DNA of 64,000 nt, from contig CAYTSW010000003.1 of assembly GCA_964440605.1 (NCBI GenBank), positions 5,421-69,420 of the forward strand, given 5' to 3'. The translations under genes and the position numbers were made by a program. The stretch comes from an uncultured Phycisphaeraceae bacterium (GTDB lineage: Bacteria > Planctomycetota > Phycisphaerae > Phycisphaerales > UBA1924). The notes under the pieces were generated by a model. It saw only the letters and a program-made list of their open reading frames with translations. It had not been told where the DNA came from and ran no database searches. Of the stretch, positions 3,945 through 45,868 are shown one piece after another. Position 1 is the first letter of the stretch. Each line of letters opens with the position of its first letter.

Positions 3945-6103
3945 CGGATGGCTCCCAGCTTGGCGAGGTCGTCCTTGGCGCGCTGCAGTCGCGTGGAGAC
4001 GTGCTTGTGCGCGCCGGGGTGCTTGTCGGGCTTGAAGACTTCCAGCGCGCTCTCGTAGTAGGCGACGGCTTCGGTCAGGTGGTCCTCACGGTCGCCGGGC
4101 AGCTTGCTCCAGGCCAGGCCGAGGTTGGCCTGGGTGCGGGCCCAGTCGACGGGCATCTGCTCGCGGGTGCGCACGGTCAGGGCGGCTTCGAAGGCCTCGA
4201 TGGCTTCGCGGACGTTCGTGCCGCGACCGGTGATGGGCAGGTGAAGGAGCGCCGAGCCGAGGTTGTTCTGCGTCGCGGCCCACTCGGCAGGGTGAGAGCC
4301 TCGGGTCCGCACCTGGAGGGCCGATCGGTAGCAGGCGATGGCCCGGCGCATGTTCCTTTCCCGCCCGTCGTCCTCGGCGGGGAGCAGGGCCCAGGCGTTG
4401 CCCAAGTTGCTCTGCGTGGCGCCCCACTCGCCCCGGCGATCGAGCTCGGACCAAACTTCGAGGGCGGACTGGTGACACGCGATGCCGCGCTCGACGTTCT
4501 GCTTGTGGTCGCCTCCCGGGAACTGGATCCACGCGTTGCCCAGGTTGTTCTGGAGCCGGGCCCAGTGGACGGCGTGGGCGTCGCGGGTGCGGATTTCGAG
4601 GGCGGCGGTGAAGCAGCGGATGGCCTGCTCGAGGGTGCGCATGCGGTCGGCTGTTGGCAGGCGTTCCCACGCGTGGCCCATCATGTTCTGCACGTTGGCC
4701 CAGCGTTCGGGGTGCTTGTCGCGTGTCCAGACGCGGGCGGTCTCGCGCAGGGACGCGATAGCGCGTTCGACGTTGGTGAAGCGGTCGCCCGTGGGCATCT
4801 CGATCCACGCCTGGGCGAGGTGGAGGCGCGACTCGGCCCACCAGTCGGCCTGCTGCGCCTGGTCGAAGATGTTGCCGGCCTGCTCGAAGCAGCGCACGGC
4901 TTCGTGCATGGCGTGGCTGCGGTCGGAGCCCCCGGTGAGCATCCACGACATGCCCAGCACGACGAGCGCCTTGCCGCGATCGGCGGAGCCGGCGGGTTGC
5001 TCGGAGACGGTGGTGTTGAGCAGGTCGAAGGCCTCGCGGAGGTTGTCGTCGCGGACGCCGCGCTCGCGGCGGAGGAGGGTCATGGCGACGTTCTGGCGCG
5101 TGCGTGGGTCGTCGCGGGTGGCGCGGGCGGTGCGGTAGTGGATCAGCGCCTCTTCGAAGCGGTGCTCGAAGTAGAAGCGGTCGCCCGTGATGGTCTCGCG
5201 TTCGAGCTTGTCGAGCTCGCGCAGGCAGGGCATGAGGCCTTCGGCGCGGACGAAGTCGCGTAAGGCAATGGCGGCGACGAGCCGGTCGAAGGGCGTTTCG
5301 CTCGTGCGCAGGCGCTTGGCGGCTGTGAGGACGTCTTCGGTGATGGCGGCGAGCATCGCGTCGCCCGGGCGCTTGTCGGCCAGCGCGCGGCGGACGAGGC
5401 CGAGATCGCCGGAGGCCGGGGCCTCGGCGCCCGGGGGCGCCATCACGGCCGCGTCGGACGCGGCGCGGGCGGGCTCGTCGCCCGCGGGCGGATCCTTCGC
5501 GGGAGCGCGCGTCTCGGAGCCGGCGGGCGGCTTCGGCGCGTCGGTCGTGGTCGATTGTCCACGGGCCCGCGTCGCGTCGGCGAAGGCGTCGGAAGCGGCG
5601 TCCTTGAGCAGCGGGACTTCGTCTTCGCCGTCGGCGCCGGAGAGCGGGCCGTCGAGCCACGCTTCGTAGTCGGCGAGTTGCTGGAGCAGGCCGTCGCCTC
5701 GTTCGGTGGCCCAGCGGACGAGATGGATGCGGAGCCACTGGTGTCGGCTGAGGGTGCCGTCGATGGCCATGGCCGAGACGGACATTGCCTGGCTCCAGGC
5801 GTGGGCCTTCTCGGTGGAAATCAGCGCGTGTCGGCGTCGTCCGGCGGCGAGGGCCTCGAGGGTGCGCCGCATGGTGCCGTAGCGCAGCACGAGCCGGGCG
5901 AGGAAGTTGCCCACGCGTTCGACGGTCTGGCGATCGGCGTGGCTCGCGACCGCGACCGTTTCAGCCACCAGCCCGACGAGCTCGGGCAGGATGGCCAGTC
6001 CGCCGGCGGGAACATCGGTCCTGCCCAAAGCGGTGCGGACCGCCCCGGAGCTGATGCTCCCCGTCGTCGCCACGAGGCGGGCGATCTGACGCGCTGATGC
6101 CAT
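3941..6103 (-). CDS. TPR-repeat protein (720 aa)
   Basis: The C-terminal two-thirds holds about 8 tandem ~42-aa units (W..TQNNLGNAW..LP.GDR..N...AI..Y..AL.V.TR...P..WA). Translationally coupled to the downstream META gene. Confidence 0.8.
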   Translation of the reverse strand: MASARQIARLVATTGSISSGAVRTALGRTDVPAGGLAILPELVGLVAETVAVASHADRQTVERVGNFLARLVLRYGTMRRTLEALAAGRRRHALISTEKAHAWSQAMSVSAMAIDGTLSRHQWLRIHLVRWATERGDGLLQQLADYEAWLDGPLSGADGEDEVPLLKDAASDAFADATRARGQSTTTDAPKPPAGSETRAPAKDPPAGDEPARAASDAAVMAPPGAEAPASGDLGLVRRALADKRPGDAMLAAITEDVLTAAKRLRTSETPFDRLVAAIALRDFVRAEGLMPCLRELDKLERETITGDRFYFEHRFEEALIHYRTARATRDDPRTRQNVAMTLLRRERGVRDDNLREAFDLLNTTVSEQPAGSADRGKALVVLGMSWMLTGGSDRSHAMHEAVRCFEQAGNIFDQAQQADWWAESRLHLAQAWIEMPTGDRFTNVERAIASLRETARVWTRDKHPERWANVQNMMGHAWERLPTADRMRTLEQAIRCFTAALEIRTRDAHAVHWARLQNNLGNAWIQFPGGDHKQNVERGIACHQSALEVWSELDRRGEWGATQSNLGNAWALLPAEDDGRERNMRRAIACYRSALQVRTRGSHPAEWAATQNNLGSALLHLPITGRGTNVREAIEAFEAALTVRTREQMPVDWARTQANLGLAWSKLPGDREDHLTEAVAYYESALEVFKPDKHPGAHKHVSTRLQRAKDDLAKLGAIR

Positions 6104-8889: not shown

Positions 8890-11130
8890 TCAGAAGCCCG
8901 CGGCGGTGAGCCAGGCGCTGGGCTTGGCGTCGAGCGCCGCCGCGACGCTCAGGAGGCTTTCGAGGCTGGGCAGGTGCGCCCCGCGCTCGATGCTCGAGAG
9001 TTGGCTGACGCTGACACGCGAGGCCTCGCTGAGTTCCTTGAGCGTCCAGCCGCGCTCGGTGCGGGCGAGGCGGATGCGTCGGCCGAGGGTCTGGCGGAGG
9101 CGGTCCTGGGGACGTTCGCCCAGGCCGAAGGTCTCGACGGCTTGGCGCAGGGTGGCGCGCAACTCGTCAACGCTGAAGGGCTTGGAGAGGTAGTCGAAGA
9201 CGTCCTGCTTGAAGGTGTTGCGCATCGTCTCGAGCGACGGGTAGCCGGTGACGACGACGACGCAGAGGTTCTCCCAGCGGGTGCGGATCTCGTCGAGCAC
9301 CTGGGCGCCGTCGTGCCGACCCATCTTCATGTCGAGCAGCACGACGTCGGGCAGGCGGGTTTCGTTGGCCTCGTAGAGCTCGTCCGGCGTCGCGACGACG
9401 CGGATCTCGTGTCCCTCGGCGGCGAGCACGCCCTCGATGTACTGGCGGAAGTCGGCATCGTCGTCGAGGGCGACGATCGACAGCGACGGAATGGCATCCA
9501 CCACCTGGTTCACGGGGCGTCGGGCTCCTGCTGGCGATCGACGCCGTTCGCGGATGGGTCCGCGTTGGTGCTGGCGTCGGTCTGAGGATGGTAGCCCTCG
9601 GCCTTGTCGCGGTTGCTCGCGTGGGGGGGGTCGGCGGGGGGGCCCCGGGGGGGGGGGGGGGGGGGGGGGGCCCTGGGCGGGGAGGAGGCCTTCGAACTCG
9701 GCGCCGGTGTCGGGCGGGGTGCGGTTGCGGGCGACGACGACGCCGCCGTGCTCGCGAACGATGCCCTCGGCGACCGCGAGGCCGAGCCCCGTGCCGTGCG
9801 AGTCCATGCGGGTGGAGGCGAAGGGCTCGAAGAGACGCGGGAGGACGGCGTGGGCGATGCCGGGGCCTGAGTCGCGGACGGTGAGGCCGGCCCATGATTC
9901 GCCGTCGCGTTCGACCCACTCGCTGGCGACTTCGAGCGCGCGGCCCACGCCGCTCTCGTCCATGGCGTCCACCGCATTGCGCAAGAGGTTGACGAAGAGC
10001 TGTGTCAGGCGGTCCGCGTCGCCGCGGATGGTCGAGCCGGGCGGGACGGCGTTGGTGAAGTCGACGTCGGCGTGCGAGCGGTCGATGCTCACGAGCGTCC
10101 ACGCTTCGTCGATGACGGCGCGGAGGTCGACCTCGTTCATCGCCGGCGGGCGGACGCGGGCGAAGTCGAGCAGGCTCTCGCTCAATCGTTCGAGCCGGCG
10201 GACGACGCGGAGCATCAGCGCCGCCTGCTGCGGGTCGAGCGAGCGCGGGTTCTCGTTGAGGCGTTCGACGCTGCCTTTGAGGACGGCCAGCGGGGTGTTG
10301 AGCTCGTGCGCGATGCCGGCGGACATGATGCCGAGGCTCGCCAGGCGGTCCTGATCCGCGAGGTTGCGCTTGGCGGTTTCGAGCAGGTGGTTCTTGCGTT
10401 TGAGCTCGGCGGCGATGCGCTCGACCTCGTCGAGCGCCGCGTTGAGCTGCGCCTCCTGGTCGCGGAGCTTCACGATTGATCGGTTGCGGCTGCGCATGAT
10501 CTCGGCGAGCTCGTCCGAGCCGATGTCGCGCTCGGGGATCAACTCGGCGTCGCGCAGACCGGCCTGGACGGCTTCGTCGGCGCGCCGGAGGCGCTCGATC
10601 GGGCCGTATACCTGCTTGGGCAGCACAAAGACCTCGAGCGTCGCGGCGATGAGCGCGTAGACGCTCAGCAGCGCGACGGTCAGCAGCAGATAGAGCTCGT
10701 TGACCGCGGCGCGGGCGCCCGTGCTGCTCACGCGGGCGACGACGAACCGGCCCGCGGAAGCGTCCCAGACGGCGGCGGTCGCGCCGCCTCGCGCGCCGGT
10801 GCGGATGAACGGTTCGCCCGCGGCGTCGCGGACCTGCTGGGCGAGGGCTTCGGGCAGGCCGACGCGCTCGGCATCGCCCTCGTTGAGGATCACGCCGTCG
10901 AGATCGGGTGCGCTGACGCCTGATCGGGCGAACTCCAGCGCGAGCAGGGCTTCGCGGCGTTCGGCCTCGCCGACGAGCTTGCCGACGGCGGGGCGCAGCG
11001 CGATGAGCAGGATCACCGCCAGCGAGAGGGAGAAGAGGGTGTGGAGGAGGACGAGCTTGCGCCGGATGCGCGAGGCGGCCTGCACCTTCATGCGCGAGCC
11101 GGTGCGTTGCAGGGTCTCGGCGACGGTCAT
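8890..11130 (-). CDS. Sensor histidine kinase joined in frame, via a poly-Pro linker encoded by a G24 tract, to a REC + XRE-type HTH response regulator (probably two genes: kinase ~9510..11130, regulator 8890..9513)
   Basis: Kinase features: 2 TM, H-box SAGIAHELNTPL, N-box LLRNAVDAM, G-boxes DSGPGI and GTGLGLAV. Regulator features: receiver domain (IVALDDD...VLLDMKMG...SKPF) and a Cro/C1-type HTH (WTLKELSEASRVSVSQLSSIERG). See the finding on the homopolymer. Confidence 0.8.
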   Translation of the reverse strand: MTVAETLQRTGSRMKVQAASRIRRKLVLLHTLFSLSLAVILLIALRPAVGKLVGEAERREALLALEFARSGVSAPDLDGVILNEGDAERVGLPEALAQQVRDAAGEPFIRTGARGGATAAVWDASAGRFVVARVSSTGARAAVNELYLLLTVALLSVYALIAATLEVFVLPKQVYGPIERLRRADEAVQAGLRDAELIPERDIGSDELAEIMRSRNRSIVKLRDQEAQLNAALDEVERIAAELKRKNHLLETAKRNLADQDRLASLGIMSAGIAHELNTPLAVLKGSVERLNENPRSLDPQQAALMLRVVRRLERLSESLLDFARVRPPAMNEVDLRAVIDEAWTLVSIDRSHADVDFTNAVPPGSTIRGDADRLTQLFVNLLRNAVDAMDESGVGRALEVASEWVERDGESWAGLTVRDSGPGIAHAVLPRLFEPFASTRMDSHGTGLGLAVAEGIVREHGGVVVARNRTPPDTGAEFEGLLPAQGPPPPPPPPGPPRRPPPREQPRQGRGLPSSDRRQHQRGPIRERRRSPAGARRPVNQVVDAIPSLSIVALDDDADFRQYIEGVLAAEGHEIRVVATPDELYEANETRLPDVVLLDMKMGRHDGAQVLDEIRTRWENLCVVVVTGYPSLETMRNTFKQDVFDYLSKPFSVDELRATLRQAVETFGLGERPQDRLRQTLGRRIRLARTERGWTLKELSEASRVSVSQLSSIERGAHLPSLESLLSVAAALDAKPSAWLTAAGF
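9647..9670. repeat. Homopolymer G24 (C24 on the coding strand) inside the kinase/regulator junction
   Basis: Counted directly: the g run covers 9647..9670, flanked by cccc on the left. GGGGGGG (9636..9642) and GGGGGGGG (9623..9630) tracts lie nearby. Confidence 0.97.
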
Positions 11131-22667: not shown

Positions 22668-22937
22668 CGCCGATCTCGGGTTCGTGGGTGCAATCGCCCG
22701 TCGATGGTGGGCGTTGGGACCGTGACCCGGGGTCCATGGCGGGGGTGAGCATTTCATCTCGGGCGAGCCCTTGCGAAGGCCCGGTGGGGATCCCTAGTCT
22801 GATTGGACGCGATTTCTGGAACACGCGGGTGAGGGAGGCGTCGGAACCCGAAGTGGGGTTCCTTCGGATGGAAGTAGCGCGGCCTCGATGTCGCCCGCAC
22901 AGCCCCCTATTTGAGCCGCTCGAGCAGTAGCAGGAGC

Positions 22938-24860
22938 ATGAACATGACCCAGCGCCCCTTTGTCGGACGCTTCGCCACGGTCGCCGTTGGACTCGGCCTC
23001 GCCGTCGGTGTCGCCACCGCGGCGCCGCAGGATTTCAGCGATGACTTCAACGACGGCGACTTCACGCCCGACCGATTTCTGCTGGACACGGACGGGAACC
23101 TGGCGACGGGGGCGGATCAGGAGCCCACGCCGCTGTGGATGCCGATCTTTGGTTCGGACCGCAACCCGACGTCGTCGGTGATCCGGATCGACGAGAACCG
23201 CAAGACGGGGTACCTGCGCTTCCGCTCGCCGCGCAACCGCAACACGCACTCGTACGCGGGCTACATCGCCAACGGATGGAGCTTCGACCCGCTCGACCCG
23301 CTCGACTCGCCGCTGATCCCCGGCGGCTCGATCACCTTGCCCGAGGACGAGGCGCAGGCGATCGAGACGACCCCGCTCCGACTGATCGGGCTGCCCGACG
23401 ACTTCAGCTTCACGGTCGAGGCGAGCTTCGGCTTCAACGTGCTGCGCCCGGCCATCAACGATCCCGTCGGCGCGCTGACCGAGCGCGGCATGACGATCGC
23501 GCTGCTCGACACGGGGATGGTGGACATCGGGTACGGGAGTCTCAACGACGGGGCACTGGTCAACACGGGCGTGGAAGTCGCGATCGAGAATCTCCAGGGG
23601 CTGAACGCTCTTCAGTTCCGGCTGACGCGTTGGGAGGGCGGGGTCGCGGTGCAGGAGGACACAACGCTGTTCGATCCTTTCACCAGCTTCGAGGGCACGG
23701 TCGCGGTTTCGTATCAGAACAATCCGGTTGTCCAGGACCAGTATCTGGTGAGCTTCACCGATCGCTTCAACCGGGTCTCGGTGCTGACGATCGGCGGCGT
23801 GTACGGCGGACGCGATTCGGACGAAGGCGGCCCCATCGAGCAGATGGGCGCCTGCTGCTTCGACGATAACACCTGCGTTGACGCGGTGACCTCGTCGCAG
23901 TGCGAGTCGGCCGACGGCGACTTCCGCGGGGAGGACGCCGACTGCGATCAGGGCAACTGCACGCTGATGCCCGACGGCGACGGCGAAGACATCGGTGCCT
24001 GCTGCTTCGACGACACCAACGACTGTTTCGATGGTGCCGAGGAGCAGGAATGCGACGCCGCGGGCGGTGACTGGCGCGGCATTGGCTCGACGTGCGATAT
24101 GGGCAACTGCGTGCTCGAAGACATGATGGGTATGCCACTGCCCGAGGGCGCGTGCTGCCTCGACGACGACACCTGCGTCGAAGTCGGTGCGGTGGATTGC
24201 CTGATGATGAGCGGCATCTTTCAGGGCCAGGGCGTGGGCTGCGTCGGTGCGTGCCTCGGCGCGACTGAGATGGGTGCCTGCTGCATCCCGGACGAAGACT
24301 GCATAGAGGTCGAGGCCGACGAGTGCCTCGCCATGGGTGGTCAGTTCCAAGGCGCCGGCACGGGCTGCGTCGGTGCGTGTACCGGCGGGGCTGATGGCGG
24401 CGATGACGGCGTGATCGACACCGAGATGTTCATGAACGTCATTCAGCCCTCGCTGTTCATCGGTGTCTACTCGGAGCGTTGCACCCGCCCCATCCGCCCG
24501 CAGACCACCTTCTTCGACTCGCTCATCATGAACGAACTCACTTTCCAGCTCGACGGGAACCTGAACTTCGATCCGGACCCCGACTTCGATGGGGATGGCG
24601 ACGTCGATCGCTTCGACATGGCCGCGGCTCTGACCGCCTTCCCGCCCGTTCGAGACGAGTTGCTGCTGGCGATCCTGACCGATGCCGGTGGTCCCACGCC
24701 CGATCAGTTCATCCGCCCGCGTCAGTACAACCGAGCGGTGAACCGCTGGTACAAGCGCAACGTGATCCCCGCATTCGCGGGGCAGCGCAACCGCGCCGAG
24801 CGCCGGAATGACCGCCGCAAGCTCTTCGGCCTGCGTGAGCTTGTCTTCCCCGGTAGCTGA
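22938..24860 (+). CDS. Secreted protein with four tandem six-Cys modules and a dockerin-like C-terminal segment
   Basis: Signal peptide (FATVAVGLGLAVGVATAAP). Four GACC.(D)D..C........C...GG.F.G.G..C....C modules at about nt 23847..24380. DFDGDGDVDRFDMAAAL near the C-terminus. Start could be 22938 or 22944 (AGGAG upstream). Confidence 0.75.
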   Translation: MNMTQRPFVGRFATVAVGLGLAVGVATAAPQDFSDDFNDGDFTPDRFLLDTDGNLATGADQEPTPLWMPIFGSDRNPTSSVIRIDENRKTGYLRFRSPRNRNTHSYAGYIANGWSFDPLDPLDSPLIPGGSITLPEDEAQAIETTPLRLIGLPDDFSFTVEASFGFNVLRPAINDPVGALTERGMTIALLDTGMVDIGYGSLNDGALVNTGVEVAIENLQGLNALQFRLTRWEGGVAVQEDTTLFDPFTSFEGTVAVSYQNNPVVQDQYLVSFTDRFNRVSVLTIGGVYGGRDSDEGGPIEQMGACCFDDNTCVDAVTSSQCESADGDFRGEDADCDQGNCTLMPDGDGEDIGACCFDDTNDCFDGAEEQECDAAGGDWRGIGSTCDMGNCVLEDMMGMPLPEGACCLDDDTCVEVGAVDCLMMSGIFQGQGVGCVGACLGATEMGACCIPDEDCIEVEADECLAMGGQFQGAGTGCVGACTGGADGGDDGVIDTEMFMNVIQPSLFIGVYSERCTRPIRPQTTFFDSLIMNELTFQLDGNLNFDPDPDFDGDGDVDRFDMAAALTAFPPVRDELLLAILTDAGGPTPDQFIRPRQYNRAVNRWYKRNVIPAFAGQRNRAERRNDRRKLFGLRELVFPGS

Positions 24861-24886
24861 CCGCTCGCCCGCACGAGTGTTCCAAG

Positions 24887-24922
24887 CACGACAGCGCCCG
24901 CCGATCGGCGGGCGCTGTCGTG
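24887..24922. other. Terminator-type GC hairpin whose loop centre is the palindrome axis
   Basis: CACGACAGCGCCCGCC-GATC-GGCGGGCGCTGTCGTG, starting 27 nt after the stop codon at 24858..24860. Same style as other terminators in the window (GCCCGCC-NNNN-GGCGGGC). Confidence 0.6.
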
Positions 24923-24948
24923 CTTGGAACACTCGTGCGGGCGAGCGG

Positions 24949-26871
24949 TCAGCTACCGGGGAAGACAAGCTCACGCAGGCCGAAGAGCTTGCGGCGGTCA
25001 TTCCGGCGCTCGGCGCGGTTGCGCTGCCCCGCGAATGCGGGGATCACGTTGCGCTTGTACCAGCGGTTCACCGCTCGGTTGTACTGACGCGGGCGGATGA
25101 ACTGATCGGGCGTGGGACCACCGGCATCGGTCAGGATCGCCAGCAGCAACTCGTCTCGAACGGGCGGGAAGGCGGTCAGAGCCGCGGCCATGTCGAAGCG
25201 ATCGACGTCGCCATCCCCATCGAAGTCGGGGTCCGGATCGAAGTTCAGGTTCCCGTCGAGCTGGAAAGTGAGTTCGTTCATGATGAGCGAGTCGAAGAAG
25301 GTGGTCTGCGGGCGGATGGGGCGGGTGCAACGCTCCGAGTAGACACCGATGAACAGCGAGGGCTGAATGACGTTCATGAACATCTCGGTGTCGATCACGC
25401 CGTCATCGCCGCCATCAGCCCCGCCGGTACACGCACCGACGCAGCCCGTGCCGGCGCCTTGGAACTGACCACCCATGGCGAGGCACTCGTCGGCCTCGAC
25501 CTCTATGCAGTCTTCGTCCGGGATGCAGCAGGCACCCATCTCAGTCGCGCCGAGGCACGCACCGACGCAGCCCACGCCCTGGCCCTGAAAGATGCCGCTC
25601 ATCATCAGGCAATCCACCGCACCGACTTCGACGCAGGTGTCGTCGTCGAGGCAGCACGCGCCCTCGGGCAGTGGCATACCCATCATGTCTTCGAGCACGC
25701 AGTTGCCCATATCGCACGTCGAGCCAATGCCGCGCCAGTCACCGCCCGCGGCGTCGCATTCCTGCTCCTCGGCACCATCGAAACAGTCGTTGGTGTCGTC
25801 GAAGCAGCAGGCACCGATGTCTTCGCCGTCGCCGTCGGGCATCAGCGTGCAGTTGCCCTGATCGCAGTCGGCGTCCTCCCCGCGGAAGTCGCCGTCGGCC
25901 GACTCGCACTGCGACGAGGTCACCGCGTCAACGCAGGTGTTATCGTCGAAGCAGCAGGCGCCCATCTGCTCGATGGGGCCGCCTTCGTCCGAATCGCGTC
26001 CGCCGTACACGCCGCCGATCGTCAGCACCGAGACCCGGTTGAAGCGATCGGTGAAGCTCACCAGATACTGGTCCTGGACAACCGGATTGTTCTGATACGA
26101 AACCGCGACCGTGCCCTCGAAGCTGGTGAAAGGATCGAACAGCGTTGTGTCCTCCTGCACCGCGACCCCGCCCTCCCAACGCGTCAGCCGGAACTGAAGA
26201 GCGTTCAGCCCCTGGAGATTCTCGATCGCGACTTCCACGCCCGTGTTGACCAGTGCCCCGTCGTTGAGACTCCCGTACCCGATGTCCACCATCCCCGTGT
26301 CGAGCAGCGCGATCGTCATGCCGCGCTCGGTCAGCGCGCCGACGGGATCGTTGATGGCCGGGCGCAGCACGTTGAAGCCGAAGCTCGCCTCGACCGTGAA
26401 GCTGAAGTCGTCGGGCAGCCCGATCAGTCGGAGCGGGGTCGTCTCGATCGCCTGCGCCTCGTCCTCGGGCAAGGTGATCGAGCCGCCGGGGATCAGCGGC
26501 GAGTCGAGCGGGTCGAGCGGGTCGAAGCTCCATCCGTTGGCGATGTAGCCCGCGTACGAGTGCGTGTTGCGGTTGCGCGGCGAGCGGAAGCGCAGGTACC
26601 CCGTCTTGCGGTTCTCGTCGATCCGGATCACCGACGACGTCGGGTTGCGGTCCGAACCAAAGATCGGCATCCACAGCGGCGTGGGCTCCTGATCCGCCCC
26701 CGTCGCCAGGTTCCCGTCCGTGTCCAGCAGAAATCGGTCGGGCGTGAAGTCGCCGTCGTTGAAGTCATCGCTGAAATCCTGCGGCGCCGCGGTGGCGACA
26801 CCGACGGCGAGGCCGAGTCCAACGGCGACCGTGGCGAAGCGTCCGACAAAGGGGCGCTGGGTCATGTTCAT
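24949..26871 (-). CDS. Secreted six-Cys-module / dockerin-like protein (mirror copy)
   Basis: Mirror of 22938..24860; identical translation. Confidence 0.75.
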   Translation of the reverse strand: MNMTQRPFVGRFATVAVGLGLAVGVATAAPQDFSDDFNDGDFTPDRFLLDTDGNLATGADQEPTPLWMPIFGSDRNPTSSVIRIDENRKTGYLRFRSPRNRNTHSYAGYIANGWSFDPLDPLDSPLIPGGSITLPEDEAQAIETTPLRLIGLPDDFSFTVEASFGFNVLRPAINDPVGALTERGMTIALLDTGMVDIGYGSLNDGALVNTGVEVAIENLQGLNALQFRLTRWEGGVAVQEDTTLFDPFTSFEGTVAVSYQNNPVVQDQYLVSFTDRFNRVSVLTIGGVYGGRDSDEGGPIEQMGACCFDDNTCVDAVTSSQCESADGDFRGEDADCDQGNCTLMPDGDGEDIGACCFDDTNDCFDGAEEQECDAAGGDWRGIGSTCDMGNCVLEDMMGMPLPEGACCLDDDTCVEVGAVDCLMMSGIFQGQGVGCVGACLGATEMGACCIPDEDCIEVEADECLAMGGQFQGAGTGCVGACTGGADGGDDGVIDTEMFMNVIQPSLFIGVYSERCTRPIRPQTTFFDSLIMNELTFQLDGNLNFDPDPDFDGDGDVDRFDMAAALTAFPPVRDELLLAILTDAGGPTPDQFIRPRQYNRAVNRWYKRNVIPAFAGQRNRAERRNDRRKLFGLRELVFPGS

Positions 26872-27141
26872 GCTCCTGCTACTGCTCGAGCGGCTCAAAT
26901 AGGGGGCTGTGCGGGCGACATCGAGGCCGCGCTACTTCCATCCGAAGGAACCCCACTTCGGGTTCCGACGCCTCCCTCACCCGCGTGTTCCAGAAATCGC
27001 GTCCAATCAGACTAGGGATCCCCACCGGGCCTTCGCAAGGGCTCGCCCGAGATGAAATGCTCACCCCCGCCATGGACCCCGGGTCACGGTCCCAACGCCC
27101 ACCATCGACGGGCGATTGCACCCACGAACCCGAGATCGGCG

Positions 27142-37923: not shown

Positions 37924-38682
37924 GTGGAACGACGCGAAGCCTACGAACGACGCATCTGGCGCCTCGCCGCCCTCCTGACCGACGATGTCACCAAGGCCGA
38001 CGACGTGCTCGCGCTGGTCCTGCGCATGCGTCCGGACATCGAGCGCGTGCAGGACTCGCGGATCGACCGCATGACGGTCCAGGCCGCTCGCCGGACGCAC
38101 GAGTCGAACCCGGGCGACGGCCACGGGCCCGACGGCGTGTGCGCACGGGCGACGATCACCGGCCCCGTCGCCGAACTCTGGAGCCTCAGCCGCACCGAGC
38201 TCGCCCCCCAGGGGCGCGAGGCGTGGCTCTTCCGCGATGTCGAACAAATGTCTGACATCCCGGCGGCCCGCGCCATGGACTGCTCCCGCACCGCCCTGGA
38301 AGAGGTCCACCGCACCCCCGCCGAGCGCCTGCTGCGCGAAAAGACCGACAGCTCGATCGAAGGCGGGTACGACGCCGCCCTCGCCTCCCTCCGCGCCGGG
38401 CTCGACGCGCTCGACCCCTCCGAAGGCATCGCCAGGGTCGCGCACGTCCGGGCGGCCGCGCTGCGGCGTCGACGCATCTGGACCGCGATCGCCTTCGCCG
38501 GCCTGCTGGCCTTCTTCGGCGTCATGATCTTCGTGCTCATCGACCTCTTGGGCTGGAACGAGCGCAACGAAGCACTCAAACGCACCTTCGAGCGCTACTC
38601 GAACCCCGCGCCGGCACCGGCGACCGCCCCCGCCTCGCCCTCCGACACGCCGGACGGAGCGCCGCCGGCTTCCGAGCGATGA
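37924..38682 (+). CDS. Membrane-anchored sigma-70 region-4-like protein (mirror copy)
   Basis: Mirror of 11127..11885; identical translation. Confidence 0.6.
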   Translation: MERREAYERRIWRLAALLTDDVTKADDVLALVLRMRPDIERVQDSRIDRMTVQAARRTHESNPGDGHGPDGVCARATITGPVAELWSLSRTELAPQGREAWLFRDVEQMSDIPAARAMDCSRTALEEVHRTPAERLLREKTDSSIEGGYDAALASLRAGLDALDPSEGIARVAHVRAAALRRRRIWTAIAFAGLLAFFGVMIFVLIDLLGWNERNEALKRTFERYSNPAPAPATAPASPSDTPDGAPPASER

Positions 38683-40919
38683 CCGTCGCCGAGACCCTGC
38701 AACGCACCGGCTCGCGCATGAAGGTGCAGGCCGCCTCGCGCATCCGGCGCAAGCTCGTCCTCCTCCACACCCTCTTCTCCCTCTCGCTGGCGGTGATCCT
38801 GCTCATCGCGCTGCGCCCCGCCGTCGGCAAGCTCGTCGGCGAGGCCGAACGCCGCGAAGCCCTGCTCGCGCTGGAGTTCGCCCGATCAGGCGTCAGCGCA
38901 CCCGATCTCGACGGCGTGATCCTCAACGAGGGCGATGCCGAGCGCGTCGGCCTGCCCGAAGCCCTCGCCCAGCAGGTCCGCGACGCCGCGGGCGAACCGT
39001 TCATCCGCACCGGCGCGCGAGGCGGCGCGACCGCCGCCGTCTGGGACGCTTCCGCGGGCCGGTTCGTCGTCGCCCGCGTGAGCAGCACGGGCGCCCGCGC
39101 CGCGGTCAACGAGCTCTATCTGCTGCTGACCGTCGCGCTGCTGAGCGTCTACGCGCTCATCGCCGCGACGCTCGAGGTCTTTGTGCTGCCCAAGCAGGTA
39201 TACGGCCCGATCGAGCGCCTCCGGCGCGCCGACGAAGCCGTCCAGGCCGGTCTGCGCGACGCCGAGTTGATCCCCGAGCGCGACATCGGCTCGGACGAGC
39301 TCGCCGAGATCATGCGCAGCCGCAACCGATCAATCGTGAAGCTCCGCGACCAGGAGGCGCAGCTCAACGCGGCGCTCGACGAGGTCGAGCGCATCGCCGC
39401 CGAGCTCAAACGCAAGAACCACCTGCTCGAAACCGCCAAGCGCAACCTCGCGGATCAGGACCGCCTGGCGAGCCTCGGCATCATGTCCGCCGGCATCGCG
39501 CACGAGCTCAACACCCCGCTGGCCGTCCTCAAAGGCAGCGTCGAACGCCTCAACGAGAACCCGCGCTCGCTCGACCCGCAGCAGGCGGCGCTGATGCTCC
39601 GCGTCGTCCGCCGGCTCGAACGATTGAGCGAGAGCCTGCTCGACTTCGCCCGCGTCCGCCCGCCGGCGATGAACGAGGTCGACCTCCGCGCCGTCATCGA
39701 CGAAGCGTGGACGCTCGTGAGCATCGACCGCTCGCACGCCGACGTCGACTTCACCAACGCCGTCCCGCCCGGCTCGACCATCCGCGGCGACGCGGACCGC
39801 CTGACACAGCTCTTCGTCAACCTCTTGCGCAATGCGGTGGACGCCATGGACGAGAGCGGCGTGGGCCGCGCGCTCGAAGTCGCCAGCGAGTGGGTCGAAC
39901 GCGACGGCGAATCATGGGCCGGCCTCACCGTCCGCGACTCAGGCCCCGGCATCGCCCACGCCGTCCTCCCGCGTCTCTTCGAGCCCTTCGCCTCCACCCG
40001 CATGGACTCGCACGGCACGGGGCTCGGCCTCGCGGTCGCCGAGGGCATCGTTCGCGAGCACGGCGGCGTCGTCGTCGCCCGCAACCGCACCCCGCCCGAC
40101 ACCGGCGCCGAGTTCGAAGGCCTCCTCCCCGCCCAGGGCCCCCCCCCCCCCCCCCCCCCCCCGGGGCCCCCCCGCCGACCCCCCCCACGCGAGCAACCGC
40201 GACAAGGCCGAGGGCTACCATCCTCAGACCGACGCCAGCACCAACGCGGACCCATCCGCGAACGGCGTCGATCGCCAGCAGGAGCCCGACGCCCCGTGAA
40301 CCAGGTGGTGGATGCCATTCCGTCGCTGTCGATCGTCGCCCTCGACGACGATGCCGACTTCCGCCAGTACATCGAGGGCGTGCTCGCCGCCGAGGGACAC
40401 GAGATCCGCGTCGTCGCGACGCCGGACGAGCTCTACGAGGCCAACGAAACCCGCCTGCCCGACGTCGTGCTGCTCGACATGAAGATGGGTCGGCACGACG
40501 GCGCCCAGGTGCTCGACGAGATCCGCACCCGCTGGGAGAACCTCTGCGTCGTCGTCGTCACCGGCTACCCGTCGCTCGAGACGATGCGCAACACCTTCAA
40601 GCAGGACGTCTTCGACTACCTCTCCAAGCCCTTCAGCGTTGACGAGTTGCGCGCCACCCTGCGCCAAGCCGTCGAGACCTTCGGCCTGGGCGAACGTCCC
40701 CAGGACCGCCTCCGCCAGACCCTCGGCCGACGCATCCGCCTCGCCCGCACCGAGCGCGGCTGGACGCTCAAGGAACTCAGCGAGGCCTCGCGTGTCAGCG
40801 TCAGCCAACTCTCGAGCATCGAGCGCGGGGCGCACCTGCCCAGCCTCGAAAGCCTCCTGAGCGTCGCGGCGGCGCTCGACGCCAAGCCCAGCGCCTGGCT
40901 CACCGCCGCGGGCTTCTGA
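38679..40919 (+). CDS. Histidine kinase joined in frame through a C24 tract to a REC + XRE-HTH response regulator (mirror copy; probably kinase 38679..~40299 and regulator 40296..40919)
   Basis: Mirror of 8890..11130. The candidate regulator start GTG 40296 overlaps TGA 40297..40299 of the alternative kinase frame, with AGGAG at 40280..40284. Confidence 0.8.
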   Translation: MTVAETLQRTGSRMKVQAASRIRRKLVLLHTLFSLSLAVILLIALRPAVGKLVGEAERREALLALEFARSGVSAPDLDGVILNEGDAERVGLPEALAQQVRDAAGEPFIRTGARGGATAAVWDASAGRFVVARVSSTGARAAVNELYLLLTVALLSVYALIAATLEVFVLPKQVYGPIERLRRADEAVQAGLRDAELIPERDIGSDELAEIMRSRNRSIVKLRDQEAQLNAALDEVERIAAELKRKNHLLETAKRNLADQDRLASLGIMSAGIAHELNTPLAVLKGSVERLNENPRSLDPQQAALMLRVVRRLERLSESLLDFARVRPPAMNEVDLRAVIDEAWTLVSIDRSHADVDFTNAVPPGSTIRGDADRLTQLFVNLLRNAVDAMDESGVGRALEVASEWVERDGESWAGLTVRDSGPGIAHAVLPRLFEPFASTRMDSHGTGLGLAVAEGIVREHGGVVVARNRTPPDTGAEFEGLLPAQGPPPPPPPPGPPRRPPPREQPRQGRGLPSSDRRQHQRGPIRERRRSPAGARRPVNQVVDAIPSLSIVALDDDADFRQYIEGVLAAEGHEIRVVATPDELYEANETRLPDVVLLDMKMGRHDGAQVLDEIRTRWENLCVVVVTGYPSLETMRNTFKQDVFDYLSKPFSVDELRATLRQAVETFGLGERPQDRLRQTLGRRIRLARTERGWTLKELSEASRVSVSQLSSIERGAHLPSLESLLSVAAALDAKPSAWLTAAGF
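40139..40162. repeat. Homopolymer C24 (mirror of G24 at 9647..9670)
   Basis: Counted directly: the c run covers 40139..40162, followed by GGGG, then C7 (40167..40173) and C8 (40179..40186). Confidence 0.97.
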
Positions 40920-40939: not shown

Positions 40940-42502
40940 TCAGTCGAGACAGTCCGTCCGCCCGAACTGAGCGCCGAACGCGCCGAAGTCGGCGCCGTCG
41001 ACCTGGCCGTCGCTGTTGAAGTCGGCCGAGCACGTCGAAGGCAGTGGCGGGCGTATGGCGATCACCGCAGGATCGCTTGTCGCGCTGCCGCCCGCGTTGG
41101 TCACGAGCACCTCGTAGACGCCCACGTCCTGCGGCATCGCGTTGACGCTCAGCGTTGGCGACTGCGCGCCCGAGATGCTGCCGCCGTCGGTCAGCGGCAC
41201 ACCGTCCTTCGACCACTGGTACGTCAGCGGCGGGCTACCGAACACGGTGACGGTGAGCTCGGTGGTTCCGCCGCCAATCGGCAGGAGGACCACACGCTCC
41301 GGTTGGCCCGTGATGACGGGTGCGATGGGACACTGGTTCAGCAACACGCTGACGTTGTCGCTGTCTTGGTTCGCCGCGGCAAGGTCGGCCCGGCCGTCGC
41401 CGTTGAGGTCGCCGACCGCTACAGAGAAGGGGTCGGTGCCGACGCCGTAGAGCACATCGGCTGCGAAAGTGCCGTTGCCGTTGTTCGGCAACACGCTGAT
41501 GTCGTCGAAGTCAGAGTTCGCCACCGCCAGGTCGGCGTCACCGTCGTCGTCCAGGTCTCCGATCGCCACCGAGATGGCCCCGAACCTCGCGCCGTAGAGC
41601 ACGTCGACGGCAAAGGTCCCGTTCCCGTTGTTCAGCAACACGCTGACATTGCCGCCGAGGCTGTTCGCAACGGCGAGGTCGGCGTCGCCATCGCCATCGA
41701 GATCGCCGATCGCGACGGAGAAAGGCCCGTTGCCCGCGCCGTAGAGCACGTCGCTTGCGAAGGTCCCATTCCCGTTGTTCAGCAGCACGCTGACGTTGTC
41801 GCCCCCACCGAACAGGCCGCTATTCGCCACCACCAGGTCGGCGTCGCCGTCGCCGTCCAGATCTTCGATGGCCACGGCGGACGGCGCGTTGCCCGCGCCG
41901 TAGAGCACATCCGACGCGAACGTGCCGTTGCCGTTGTTGAGCAGCACGCTGACGTTGTTGCTGTTGAAGTTGGCCACGGCGAGGTCGGCGTCGCCATCGC
42001 CGTCGAGGTCACCGATGGCGATGGACCGCGGCGCGTCGCCCGCGCCGTAGAGCACGTCGGACGCGAAGGTGCCGTCGCCATTGTTCAGCAGCACGCTGAC
42101 GTTGTCGGTGATCTGGTTCGCGACGGCCAGATCGGCATCGCCATCGCCGTTCAGGTCGCCGATCACCACGGACACGGGCGCGTCGCCCGCGCCGTAGAGC
42201 ACGTCGGACGCGAAGGTGCCGTCGCCGTTGTTCAGCAGCACGCTGACGTTGTCGCTGTTGGCGTTCGCGACCGCCAGGTCCTCATCGCCGTCGCCGTCCA
42301 GGTCGCCGATCGCTAGGGAGAAGGGTCCGTTGCCCGTGTCATAGAGCACATCGGGACCGAAGAGGTCCTGCGGGTCGCACGACCCGGCGTGAGCCACGCC
42401 GCCCGCGATCAGCACGCCTGCCATCGCGACCATCCATCCGATCGCCGCGGGAGCACACCGCCCGCCCGTCCGCGCCGGGGTCGTCTTCGTCTCGGTCACC
42501 AT
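40940..42502 (-). CDS. FG-GAP/VCBS seven-repeat protein with Ig-like and dockerin-like parts (mirror copy)
   Basis: Mirror of 7307..8869; identical translation. Confidence 0.85.
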   Translation of the reverse strand: MVTETKTTPARTGGRCAPAAIGWMVAMAGVLIAGGVAHAGSCDPQDLFGPDVLYDTGNGPFSLAIGDLDGDGDEDLAVANANSDNVSVLLNNGDGTFASDVLYGAGDAPVSVVIGDLNGDGDADLAVANQITDNVSVLLNNGDGTFASDVLYGAGDAPRSIAIGDLDGDGDADLAVANFNSNNVSVLLNNGNGTFASDVLYGAGNAPSAVAIEDLDGDGDADLVVANSGLFGGGDNVSVLLNNGNGTFASDVLYGAGNGPFSVAIGDLDGDGDADLAVANSLGGNVSVLLNNGNGTFAVDVLYGARFGAISVAIGDLDDDGDADLAVANSDFDDISVLPNNGNGTFAADVLYGVGTDPFSVAVGDLNGDGRADLAAANQDSDNVSVLLNQCPIAPVITGQPERVVLLPIGGGTTELTVTVFGSPPLTYQWSKDGVPLTDGGSISGAQSPTLSVNAMPQDVGVYEVLVTNAGGSATSDPAVIAIRPPLPSTCSADFNSDGQVDGADFGAFGAQFGRTDCLD

Positions 42503-43634: not shown

Positions 43635-43705
43635 TGTTTCGTCGCCCGCCGGGGCTCATCAACAAGCCCATTGGGCCTGAGCGCGAAGCGCGGTAGACTG
43701 GCCCG

Positions 43706-45868
43706 ATGGCATCAGCGCGTCAGATCGCCCGCCTCGTGGCGACGACGGGGAGCATCAGCTCCGGGGCGGTCCGCACCGCTTTGGGCAGGACCGATGTTCC
43801 CGCCGGCGGACTGGCCATCCTGCCCGAGCTCGTCGGGCTGGTGGCTGAAACGGTCGCGGTCGCGAGCCACGCCGATCGCCAGACCGTCGAACGCGTGGGC
43901 AACTTCCTCGCCCGGCTCGTGCTGCGCTACGGCACCATGCGGCGCACCCTCGAGGCCCTCGCCGCCGGACGACGCCGACACGCGCTGATTTCCACCGAGA
44001 AGGCCCACGCCTGGAGCCAGGCAATGTCCGTCTCGGCCATGGCCATCGACGGCACCCTCAGCCGACACCAGTGGCTCCGCATCCATCTCGTCCGCTGGGC
44101 CACCGAACGAGGCGACGGCCTGCTCCAGCAACTCGCCGACTACGAAGCGTGGCTCGACGGCCCGCTCTCCGGCGCCGACGGCGAAGACGAAGTCCCGCTG
44201 CTCAAGGACGCCGCTTCCGACGCCTTCGCCGACGCGACGCGGGCCCGTGGACAATCGACCACGACCGACGCGCCGAAGCCGCCCGCCGGCTCCGAGACGC
44301 GCGCTCCCGCGAAGGATCCGCCCGCGGGCGACGAGCCCGCCCGCGCCGCGTCCGACGCGGCCGTGATGGCGCCCCCGGGCGCCGAGGCCCCGGCCTCCGG
44401 CGATCTCGGCCTCGTCCGCCGCGCGCTGGCCGACAAGCGCCCGGGCGACGCGATGCTCGCCGCCATCACCGAAGACGTCCTCACAGCCGCCAAGCGCCTG
44501 CGCACGAGCGAAACGCCCTTCGACCGGCTCGTCGCCGCCATTGCCTTACGCGACTTCGTCCGCGCCGAAGGCCTCATGCCCTGCCTGCGCGAGCTCGACA
44601 AGCTCGAACGCGAGACCATCACGGGCGACCGCTTCTACTTCGAGCACCGCTTCGAAGAGGCGCTGATCCACTACCGCACCGCCCGCGCCACCCGCGACGA
44701 CCCACGCACGCGCCAGAACGTCGCCATGACCCTCCTCCGCCGCGAGCGCGGCGTCCGCGACGACAACCTCCGCGAGGCCTTCGACCTGCTCAACACCACC
44801 GTCTCCGAGCAACCCGCCGGCTCCGCCGATCGCGGCAAGGCGCTCGTCGTGCTGGGCATGTCGTGGATGCTCACCGGGGGCTCCGACCGCAGCCACGCCA
44901 TGCACGAAGCCGTGCGCTGCTTCGAGCAGGCCGGCAACATCTTCGACCAGGCGCAGCAGGCCGACTGGTGGGCCGAGTCGCGCCTCCACCTCGCCCAGGC
45001 GTGGATCGAGATGCCCACGGGCGACCGCTTCACCAACGTCGAACGCGCTATCGCGTCCCTGCGCGAGACCGCCCGCGTCTGGACACGCGACAAGCACCCC
45101 GAACGCTGGGCCAACGTGCAGAACATGATGGGCCACGCGTGGGAACGCCTGCCAACAGCCGACCGCATGCGCACCCTCGAGCAGGCCATCCGCTGCTTCA
45201 CCGCCGCCCTCGAAATCCGCACCCGCGACGCCCACGCCGTCCACTGGGCCCGGCTCCAGAACAACCTGGGCAACGCGTGGATCCAGTTCCCGGGAGGCGA
45301 CCACAAGCAGAACGTCGAGCGCGGCATCGCGTGTCACCAGTCCGCCCTCGAAGTTTGGTCCGAGCTCGATCGCCGGGGCGAGTGGGGCGCCACGCAGAGC
45401 AACTTGGGCAACGCCTGGGCCCTGCTCCCCGCCGAGGACGACGGGCGGGAAAGGAACATGCGCCGGGCCATCGCCTGCTACCGATCGGCCCTCCAGGTGC
45501 GGACCCGAGGCTCTCACCCTGCCGAGTGGGCCGCGACGCAGAACAACCTCGGCTCGGCGCTCCTTCACCTGCCCATCACCGGTCGCGGCACGAACGTCCG
45601 CGAAGCCATCGAGGCCTTCGAAGCCGCCCTGACCGTGCGCACCCGCGAGCAGATGCCCGTCGACTGGGCCCGCACCCAGGCCAACCTCGGCCTGGCCTGG
45701 AGCAAGCTGCCCGGCGACCGTGAGGACCACCTGACCGAAGCCGTCGCCTACTACGAGAGCGCGCTGGAAGTCTTCAAGCCCGACAAGCACCCCGGCGCGC
45801 ACAAGCACGTCTCCACGCGACTGCAGCGCGCCAAGGACGACCTCGCCAAGCTGGGAGCCATCCGTTGA
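43706..45868 (+). CDS. TPR-repeat protein (mirror copy)
   Basis: Mirror of 3941..6103; identical translation. Confidence 0.8.
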   Translation: MASARQIARLVATTGSISSGAVRTALGRTDVPAGGLAILPELVGLVAETVAVASHADRQTVERVGNFLARLVLRYGTMRRTLEALAAGRRRHALISTEKAHAWSQAMSVSAMAIDGTLSRHQWLRIHLVRWATERGDGLLQQLADYEAWLDGPLSGADGEDEVPLLKDAASDAFADATRARGQSTTTDAPKPPAGSETRAPAKDPPAGDEPARAASDAAVMAPPGAEAPASGDLGLVRRALADKRPGDAMLAAITEDVLTAAKRLRTSETPFDRLVAAIALRDFVRAEGLMPCLRELDKLERETITGDRFYFEHRFEEALIHYRTARATRDDPRTRQNVAMTLLRRERGVRDDNLREAFDLLNTTVSEQPAGSADRGKALVVLGMSWMLTGGSDRSHAMHEAVRCFEQAGNIFDQAQQADWWAESRLHLAQAWIEMPTGDRFTNVERAIASLRETARVWTRDKHPERWANVQNMMGHAWERLPTADRMRTLEQAIRCFTAALEIRTRDAHAVHWARLQNNLGNAWIQFPGGDHKQNVERGIACHQSALEVWSELDRRGEWGATQSNLGNAWALLPAEDDGRERNMRRAIACYRSALQVRTRGSHPAEWAATQNNLGSALLHLPITGRGTNVREAIEAFEAALTVRTREQMPVDWARTQANLGLAWSKLPGDREDHLTEAVAYYESALEVFKPDKHPGAHKHVSTRLQRAKDDLAKLGAIR

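Follow-up and report, generated by a model that had tools for sequence, protein, structure and literature searches.

The 64,000-nucleotide (nt) stretch of DNA analyzed here (the window; positions 5,421 to 69,420 of contig CAYTSW010000003.1 from an uncultured Phycisphaeraceae bacterium) contains an open reading frame (ORF) of 746 amino acids (aa) in which a sensor histidine kinase runs through a homopolymer of 24 cytosines (C24) into a response regulator. The explanation we favor, to which we give a probability of roughly 0.75, is that this is an ordinary two-gene kinase/regulator pair, read as a fusion through a slippage-prone C run of about 24 nt whose length is uncertain. Comparisons within the window and with relatives indicate that the evolved arrangement is two overlapping genes rather than a 746-aa hybrid, because the GC content of third codon positions (GC3) switches frame at the tract, the linker has an aberrant chemistry when read as a fusion, the relatives of both proteins stand alone, and the orthologous junctions hold two genes. 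A first-pass annotation of the window had proposed two translationally coupled genes as the native state, with a tract length that is either mis-called or variable, and these four independent lines of evidence support that reading. The features concerned are listed in Table 1.

Table 1. Coordinates of the kinase-regulator locus and of the fold-back in the 64,000-nt window
Feature	Coordinates	Strand	Remarks
Assembled ORF (kinase plus regulator), 746 aa	38679-40919	+	
Sensor histidine kinase core, 486 aa	38679-40138	+	N-terminal hydrophobic segments, HisKA, HATPase_c
C24 homopolymer	40139-40162	+	Length-critical tract; codons 487-494 in the 746-aa ORF; Gly, then eight Pro
Two extra C runs in the Pro-rich tail	40167-40186	+	C7, 40167-40173; C8, 40179-40186
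Putative native C-terminal tail of the kinase, +1 frame	40163-40299	+	RGPPADPPHASNRDKAEGYHPQTDASTNADPSANGVDRQQEPDAP; stop TGA 40297-40299
Shine-Dalgarno-like AGGAG	40280-40284	+	11 nt upstream of the regulator GTG
Response regulator gene, 207 aa	40296-40919	+	GTG start at 40296
+1-frame ORF, 155 aa	39832-40299	+	Ends ...DRQQEPDAP; TGA 40297-40299
Third-frame ORF	39707-40642	+	
Upstream ORF, 252 aa	37924-38682	+	Unknown family; conserved
Fold-back copy of the whole kinase-regulator ORF	8890-11130	-	Includes 9513-9670
G24, the C24 tract in the fold-back copy	9647-9670	- (G24 on + strand)	Not an independent observation
Fold-back turning point	24883-24926	.	Centre 24904/24905; GC-rich hairpin GCGCCCGCC-GATC-GGCGGGCGC

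A kinase and a regulator meet at a C24 tract

Using Pfam, HisKA was located at residues 268 to 327 of the 746-aa ORF (E = 1.5e-10), HATPase_c at 370 to 485 (E = 5e-19), Response_reg at 553 to 661 (E = 1e-21), and an XRE-type HTH_3 at 686 to 739 (E = 2.5e-12). The kinase part therefore has what a classical two-component kinase has, a HisKA domain with an H-box histidine (H275, within SAGIAHELNTPL) and a HATPase_c domain. The regulator part likewise combines an output domain with a receiver (REC) that carries the acidic pocket, Asp and Lys residues of classical regulators (D17 to D19, D61, and the K of SKPF, read from the sequence). Its N-terminal extension of 10 residues falls within the range of 7 to 41 found in orthologs. 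No NCBIfam equivalog scored above its cutoff for either protein, and they were thus given no specific pathway name.

The C24 tract is flanked by CCTCCTCCCCGCCCAGGG on its 5' side and GGGGCCCCCCCGCCGAC on its 3' side. It starts two codons past the end of the HATPase_c match at residue 485, so that the catalytic domain runs straight into it, as the first-pass annotation had said. From the tract it is 134 nt to the GTGA at 40296 to 40299 (TCAC at 9510 to 9513 in the mirror copy), in which the GTG of the regulator overlaps the TGA of the kinase tail. The tracts, the ORFs, the GTGA overlap, and the AGGAG motif reported in that annotation were each found in their place. Together with the adjacent C7 and C8 runs, the tract forms a region in which 39 of 48 bases are C (40139 to 40186). 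A 12-mer of C gave 26 overlapping matches compared with a mean of 0.06 in dinucleotide-preserving shuffles, by which runs of 12 or more C's are not expected by chance. Across 630 kb of fetched loci, no other homopolymer exceeded 9 nt.

To follow the reading frame, the locus was rebuilt in silico with each tract length n from 5 to 29. The outcome, which is a matter of arithmetic only, has a period of three. When n is a multiple of three, as in the assembled sequence (n = 24), the product is the 746-aa kinase-regulator fusion. When n leaves a remainder of two, the kinase has 533 to 541 aa (539 aa in the arrangement taken as native) and stops on the GTGA, and a putatively coupled 207-aa regulator follows; a tract of 23 or 26 C's thus gives back the two-gene structure taken here as the evolved one. 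When n leaves a remainder of one, the kinase acquires an out-of-frame tail that extends about 168 aa past residue 486 and stays open to 40642. The three outcomes, a fusion, two genes, or a tail open to 40642, had been predicted in the first-pass annotation, and the simulation reproduced them exactly. The kinase and regulator are accordingly separate cistrons in the evolved frame, although not literally so in the assembled sequence with n = 24.

The region after the tract is coding-like in the +1 frame

The genome has a GC content of 69%, and its real genes have a GC3 of about 0.9. In the frame of the assembled ORF (frame 0), GC3 was 0.92 over the kinase (38679 to 40138), 0.56 between the tract and the GTGA (40163 to 40295), and 0.93 over the regulator (40296 to 40919); the corresponding values in frame 1 were 0.76, 0.91, and 0.70. 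Among 19 coding-like frames in the nonduplicated 39 kb, a frame scan found a single internal off-frame stretch, which starts at 40146 and in which windows up to 40224 were flagged.

The peptides encoded between the tract and the GTGA also differ in character. Read in frame 0, the linker GPPRRPPPREQPRQGRGLPSSDRRQHQRGPIRERRRSPAGARRP has a net charge of +11 and contains 32% Arg, while the frame-1 tail has a net charge of -4. The tails of 119 orthologous kinases have a mean charge of -3.0 (range, -18 to +1) and no more than 17% Arg. Peptides particular to one frame are DKAEGYHPQTDASTNADPSANGVDR for the tail taken as native and GLPSSDR and SPAGAR for the fusion linker. A per-residue composition log-likelihood against the ortholog tails did not discriminate among the three candidate tails (-3.9, -3.8, and -3.7, with an ortholog mean of -3.65 and a standard deviation of 0.26), and net charge and Arg fraction were therefore used instead. 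That the fusion frame is open does not speak for selection, as 75% of 45-codon windows in the matching relative off-frame are free of stops in this genome. By GC3, charge, Arg content, and chance openness, the linker does not have the appearance of sequence that genuinely codes in the same frame as both flanking domains, as would be expected in a hybrid kinase.

Relatives are encoded by two tightly linked genes

The 120 best matches to the kinase in a collection of 5.8 billion proteins were taken as its relatives. Only one of them, P0001, has 746 aa; its sequence is that of this ORF, and one NCBI contig, of 71,918 bp, is its only known source. The other 119 are stand-alone kinases of 483 to 556 aa that contain HisKA and HATPase_c only, share 54 to 62% identity with the query, and belong to the Phycisphaerales or Phycisphaerae where a taxon is named. 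Their tails are short, variable, and rich in Pro, Ala, Asp, and Glu. All 120 best matches to the regulator are also stand-alone proteins, of 204 to 238 aa. Fusion is thus not a property shared by orthologs, with none fused among the 119 kinase and 120 regulator relatives.

Each of the seven orthologous junctions that were read consists of two tightly linked genes, and four have a 4-nt overlap, which is ATGA at loci L001 and L078 and GTGA at L075 and L076. A 3-nt gap separates the genes at L077, and those at L079 and L080 overlap by 11 nt. At the last two loci (ENA ERZ10759711 and ERZ10759729), the gene call begins the regulator 11 nt within the kinase gene and the regulator is longer, with 244 to 246 aa, indicating that the junction can lie at different positions in different members of the family. 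Locus L001 was the one true orthologous locus from a scan of a genome collection; the other 73 loci encode distant kinases and were left out. Purine-rich motifs resembling the AGGAG lie 8 to 13 nt upstream of the regulator starts at L075, L076, and L078. The first-pass annotation had suggested this comparison of junctions, with in-frame hybrid orthologs among the findings that would speak against two genes, and no such hybrid was present among the relatives.

Poly-Pro stretches occur in the tails of orthologs as well (PPPPPPQPP at L076 and PPPPP at L079), where they are encoded by a mixture of CCG, CCT, and CCC codons. No homopolymer longer than 7 nt was found in the ortholog tails examined, and a slippery sequence of the kind conserved at programmed recoding sites is not shared by the orthologs.

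The stop codon of the 252-aa ORF upstream of the kinase overlaps the kinase ATG as ATGA (38679 to 38682). This ORF has no Pfam or NCBIfam match. Its counterparts at L075, L077, and L079 have 220 to 307 aa and lie downstream of a divergent fumarase gene, so that the order fumarase (minus strand), ORF of 220 to 307 aa, kinase, and regulator is found at all three loci. The 252-aa ORF probably represents a third, uncharacterized component of the signaling operon. Exact-protein look-ups returned nothing on record for the 746-aa ORF (P0001), the 252-aa ORF, or the 649-aa gene described below.

The tract in other assemblies of the same species

Three other assemblies contribute four more contigs from this species, which are 99.6 to 99.95% identical to the window without gaps. 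One of these, L084 (ENA ERR2407577; 35706 to 40162; 99.6% identical), ends exactly after 24 C's. The contig L081 (ENA ERR2407578) starts at 40238, 76 nt after the tract; gene calling on it independently gave the identical 207-aa regulator, starting from the GTG (P0121). The remaining two are from JGI 3300012009; L082 ends at 40119, 20 nt before the tract, and L086 starts at 40315, 153 nt after it. Scans of metagenome DNA, including that of JGI, with strict flanks or with relaxed flanks and a variable gap found no contig that crosses the tract. It is crossed by the contig analyzed here alone, and the value n = 24 corresponds to one full measurement and one lower bound, the at least 24 C's of L084. 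The ENA project (PRJEB25599) sampled the Tebenquiche and La Brava hypersaline mats with MiSeq 2x300 reads (bioRxiv 10.1101/870428), that is, with four-color chemistry. We take the run to be real in nature, since a second sample also shows 24 or more C's, and to be one that defeats short-read assembly.

The template strand of 40139 to 40186 carries G24, G7, and G8 within 48 nt and has strong G-quadruplex potential, which may contribute to the coverage or assembly breaks in three independent metagenome assemblies. Elsewhere, the window and L081 show 10 differences, 8 of them clustered in 37 nt (45139 to 45175), inside the ORF at 43697 to 45868 (plus strand). Several of these clustered differences are spaced 3 or 6 nt apart and the surrounding stretch is 99.8% identical, a pattern that suggests a small patch of hypervariability or recombination.

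The two copies of the locus almost certainly reflect an assembly fold-back

Positions 1 to 24904 of the window are the exact reverse complement of 24905 to 49808, which makes a perfect inverted repeat of 24,904 nt with no spacer (position p maps to 49809 - p). The palindrome at 1 to 49808 is, as judged from its sequence, almost certainly an assembly fold-back, since perfect identity over 24.9 kb, the lack of a spacer, and a hairpin at the turn match what is expected of an assembler that retraces its own path. On the same grounds, a real genomic inverted duplication was judged less likely. The first-pass annotation had argued that the arms are not independently evolving loci, and the case for this is stronger than the one it made. 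It had also pointed out that both arms have exactly 24 C's; both indeed read 24, but as the same sequence written twice they amount to a single observation. The left arm reaches position 1, and the palindrome may extend past the window within the 71.9-kb contig. A consequence of the fold-back is that each gene of 24905 to 49808 occurs twice in the record. A literature search on palindromic-contig artifacts yielded nothing specific.

The hairpin turn sits 44 nt past the stop of a gene at 24949 to 26898 (minus strand; mirror copy at 22911 to 24860, plus strand). Its product of 649 aa has a signal-peptide-like N terminus and four Cys-rich repeats (GACCFDD.../GACCLDD.../GACCIPD...), and it has no NCBIfam match and no exact copy elsewhere in the protein collection. 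A 520-aa protein encoded at 40940 to 42502 (minus strand) contains seven FG-GAP repeats, an Ig-like domain, and a dockerin-like C terminus. Its DNA includes internal repeats of 285 to 433 nt that are 77 to 82% identical, and because of the fold-back these appear as additional inverted repeats.

How two genes could come to be read as one

Under the explanation favored here, the locus would be a three-gene operon conserved across the Phycisphaerales, made up of the 252-aa ORF, the sensor histidine kinase, and a regulator with REC and XRE-HTH domains. The 4-nt GTGA overlap of the kinase stop and regulator start would couple their translation. The kinase tail, as in the relatives, would be short, disordered, acidic, and Pro-rich, and the poly-Pro stretch that opens it may have been turned in this species into a pure C run of about 24 nt by slippage-driven homogenization and expansion. 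Such a run would slip during replication, PCR, and sequencing, making its exact length unreliable and the population probably heterogeneous in vivo. At n = 24 the tail would be read out of frame, as an Arg-rich sequence not under selection, and this reading would connect the kinase frame to the regulator frame, giving rise to the 746-aa "hybrid." Slippage at this position is likely to be cheap, since no frame alters the kinase core and the regulator is provided with a start codon and a Shine-Dalgarno-like motif of its own; this may explain the persistence of such a long run. Ribosomes that slipped by +1 at any one of the eight CCC-C codons when n = 24 would also be back in the native tail frame.

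Several points weigh against this explanation. Both datasets that bear on the length give at least 24 C's and not 23, and the length itself is known from only one crossing contig. The L084 end speaks mildly against a trivial one-off miscall of 23, and the fusion-frame allele could be the dominant genotype rather than a miscall. Lengths of 24 or more would fit a common fusion-frame allele, a true length of 26 with stutter contraction, or a mixed population, all of which are possibilities. In addition, the translational coupling and the independent initiation at the GTG are deduced from geometry.

Alternative explanations

The first alternative is adaptive phase variation, in which the tract would form a contingency locus whose slipped-strand length changes reversibly switch the operon among three states and generate heritable heterogeneity in signaling. 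In the first state the kinase would be accompanied by a free, coupled regulator, in the second the two would form a membrane-tethered fusion, and in the third the kinase would carry a junk tail and translation of the regulator would be uncoupled or occluded. The locus has two properties of contingency loci, a homopolymer well above chance length within a gene and, in silico, an altered product upon length change, here with three product sets that follow arithmetically from tract length. The run is far longer than phase-varying tracts elsewhere, such as the C6/C7 tract of bvgS (PMC1891110), it is unique given a next-longest homopolymer of 9 nt in 630 kb, and it is present in at least two samples. 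If the assembly graph branched between n = 24 and n of at least 25, a contig would be expected to stop after the 24th C, as L084 does. Against this, no length polymorphism was seen in the one crossing contig (n = 24) and the one lower bound (at least 24), and orthologs without such a tract point to a young, species-specific feature. The tract is also placed where frameshifts are least harmful, which neutral drift fits equally well, and the variable G/C tracts of Propionibacterium acnes followed clades and were ascribed by the authors to slow accumulation, not active switching (PMC4746626). Overall, we consider adaptive phase variation unlikely. It is more doubtful still that C24, in a free-living, high-GC planctomycete of hypersaline mats, acts as a hypermutable switch of pathway architecture rather than of gene presence, between two proteins, a tethered single polypeptide, and an uncoupled pair, perhaps blurred by +1 slippage.

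A very improbable alternative is recoding. Regardless of the length in the DNA, slippage of RNA polymerase on the run, or of ribosomes by +1 on its eight CCC-C codons, would give a mixture of frames and hence fused and separate products from one allele. A +1 shift at n = 24 does place ribosomes in the native tail frame, in which they reach the GTGA, and CCC-C read by tRNAPro is a classic +1 slippery context, restrained by m1G37 (PMC7577736). The run also exceeds the 9-bp RNA:DNA hybrid of the transcribing polymerase (PMC5574713), so that register could be lost without a mismatch. In the same study, however, no slippage insertions were found in G or C runs across the transcriptomes of Escherichia coli or Buchnera, although those runs were much shorter (PMC5574713). 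Programmed recoding sites are conserved, and this site is not conserved in orthologs.

Also highly improbable is a genuine, stable gene fusion, in which the species would recently have made one hybrid kinase-receiver-HTH protein resembling those of Bacteroides. The ORF is open over 746 aa, the 24 C's are compatible with two datasets, and natural single-polypeptide proteins with kinase, REC, and HTH domains exist. The linker, however, lacks a coding signature in the fusion frame (GC3, 0.56) and has an aberrant charge of +11, the GTGA overlap and Shine-Dalgarno-like motif are still intact in the +1 frame, and an open frame is expected by chance with a frequency of 0.75. None of the 239 relatives is fused, and a homopolymer of this length could not keep a fixed frame for long.

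It is extremely unlikely that the organism has no long homopolymer at all and that the run is a pure artifact of dark-cycle poly-G or a chimeric join. Poly-G is a known artifact of two-color chemistry and the contig is demonstrably misassembled elsewhere, at the fold-back, but the two-color origin was rejected because the independent contig L084, from a four-color MiSeq project, also carries 24 C's, and a chimeric join was rejected because the sequence on either side of the tract is collinear with the kinase tail and regulator of orthologs; in addition, the three other assemblies break right around the tract, as they would at real, difficult sequence.

Comparison with known systems

If the pair is indeed two genes, the 746-aa "hybrid kinase" P0001 in public protein collections is not to be read as a novel domain architecture. 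The fold-back misassembly of its contig also inflates gene counts. The case resembles homopolymer frameshift errors in draft and metagenome-assembled genomes, in that a one-base uncertainty merges adjacent genes in the sole assembly that crosses the site, on a contig that has a further clear assembly error. It differs from typical errors of this kind in that the homopolymer is real, extraordinarily long, and recurs in an independent dataset, and the ambiguity of its length may reflect biological heterogeneity and not only base-calling error. The hybrid two-component systems of Bacteroides have a kinase core, a receiver, and a DNA-binding HTH in one polypeptide, and the assembled 746-aa ORF shares this domain order. 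Real hybrids have fused orthologs and a linker whose coding signature is normal. Unlike in those systems, the linker here is out of frame, there is no fused relative, and the HTH is of the XRE rather than the AraC type.

For a G/C homopolymer in coding sequence, about 24 nt is unusually long, and this one recurs in independent samples of an environmental planctomycete. Shorter G/C tracts are known from other high-GC genomes; in P. acnes, variable tracts within and between genes shift reading frames (PMC4746626), and a 7C tract in glpK is reported for Mycobacterium tuberculosis (bioRxiv 10.1101/717272). These tracts, as described there, are much shorter than C24, and none lies at a kinase/regulator junction. 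Should the length of C24 vary in vivo, homopolymer phase variation would extend beyond host-associated pathogens.

The C6/C7 tract of bvgS, which underlies phase variation of a sensor kinase in Bordetella pertussis (PMC1891110), can be regarded as the closest precedent. As in bvgS, a C homopolymer in the coding region of a two-component sensor kinase sets the reading frame by its length. The bvgS tract has 6 to 7 nt, its shift truncates and inactivates the kinase in an ON/OFF manner, and switching has been shown experimentally. In contrast, the run described here has about 24 nt, is known from sequence alone, and lies after the catalytic core, so that the kinase stays intact and what changes is its tail and its link to the regulator. 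Homopolymer insertions and deletions in both genes of the flgS/flgR two-component system of Campylobacter jejuni alter signaling as well (PMC8355987); these occur in A/T tracts of less than 7 nt, cause loss of function, are described as not reversible, and have no fusion outcome. Frameshifts in bvgS and flgS/flgR thus destroy a protein, whereas here the alternatives would be a fused or a coupled two-component pair, which, if true, would constitute a new output logic.

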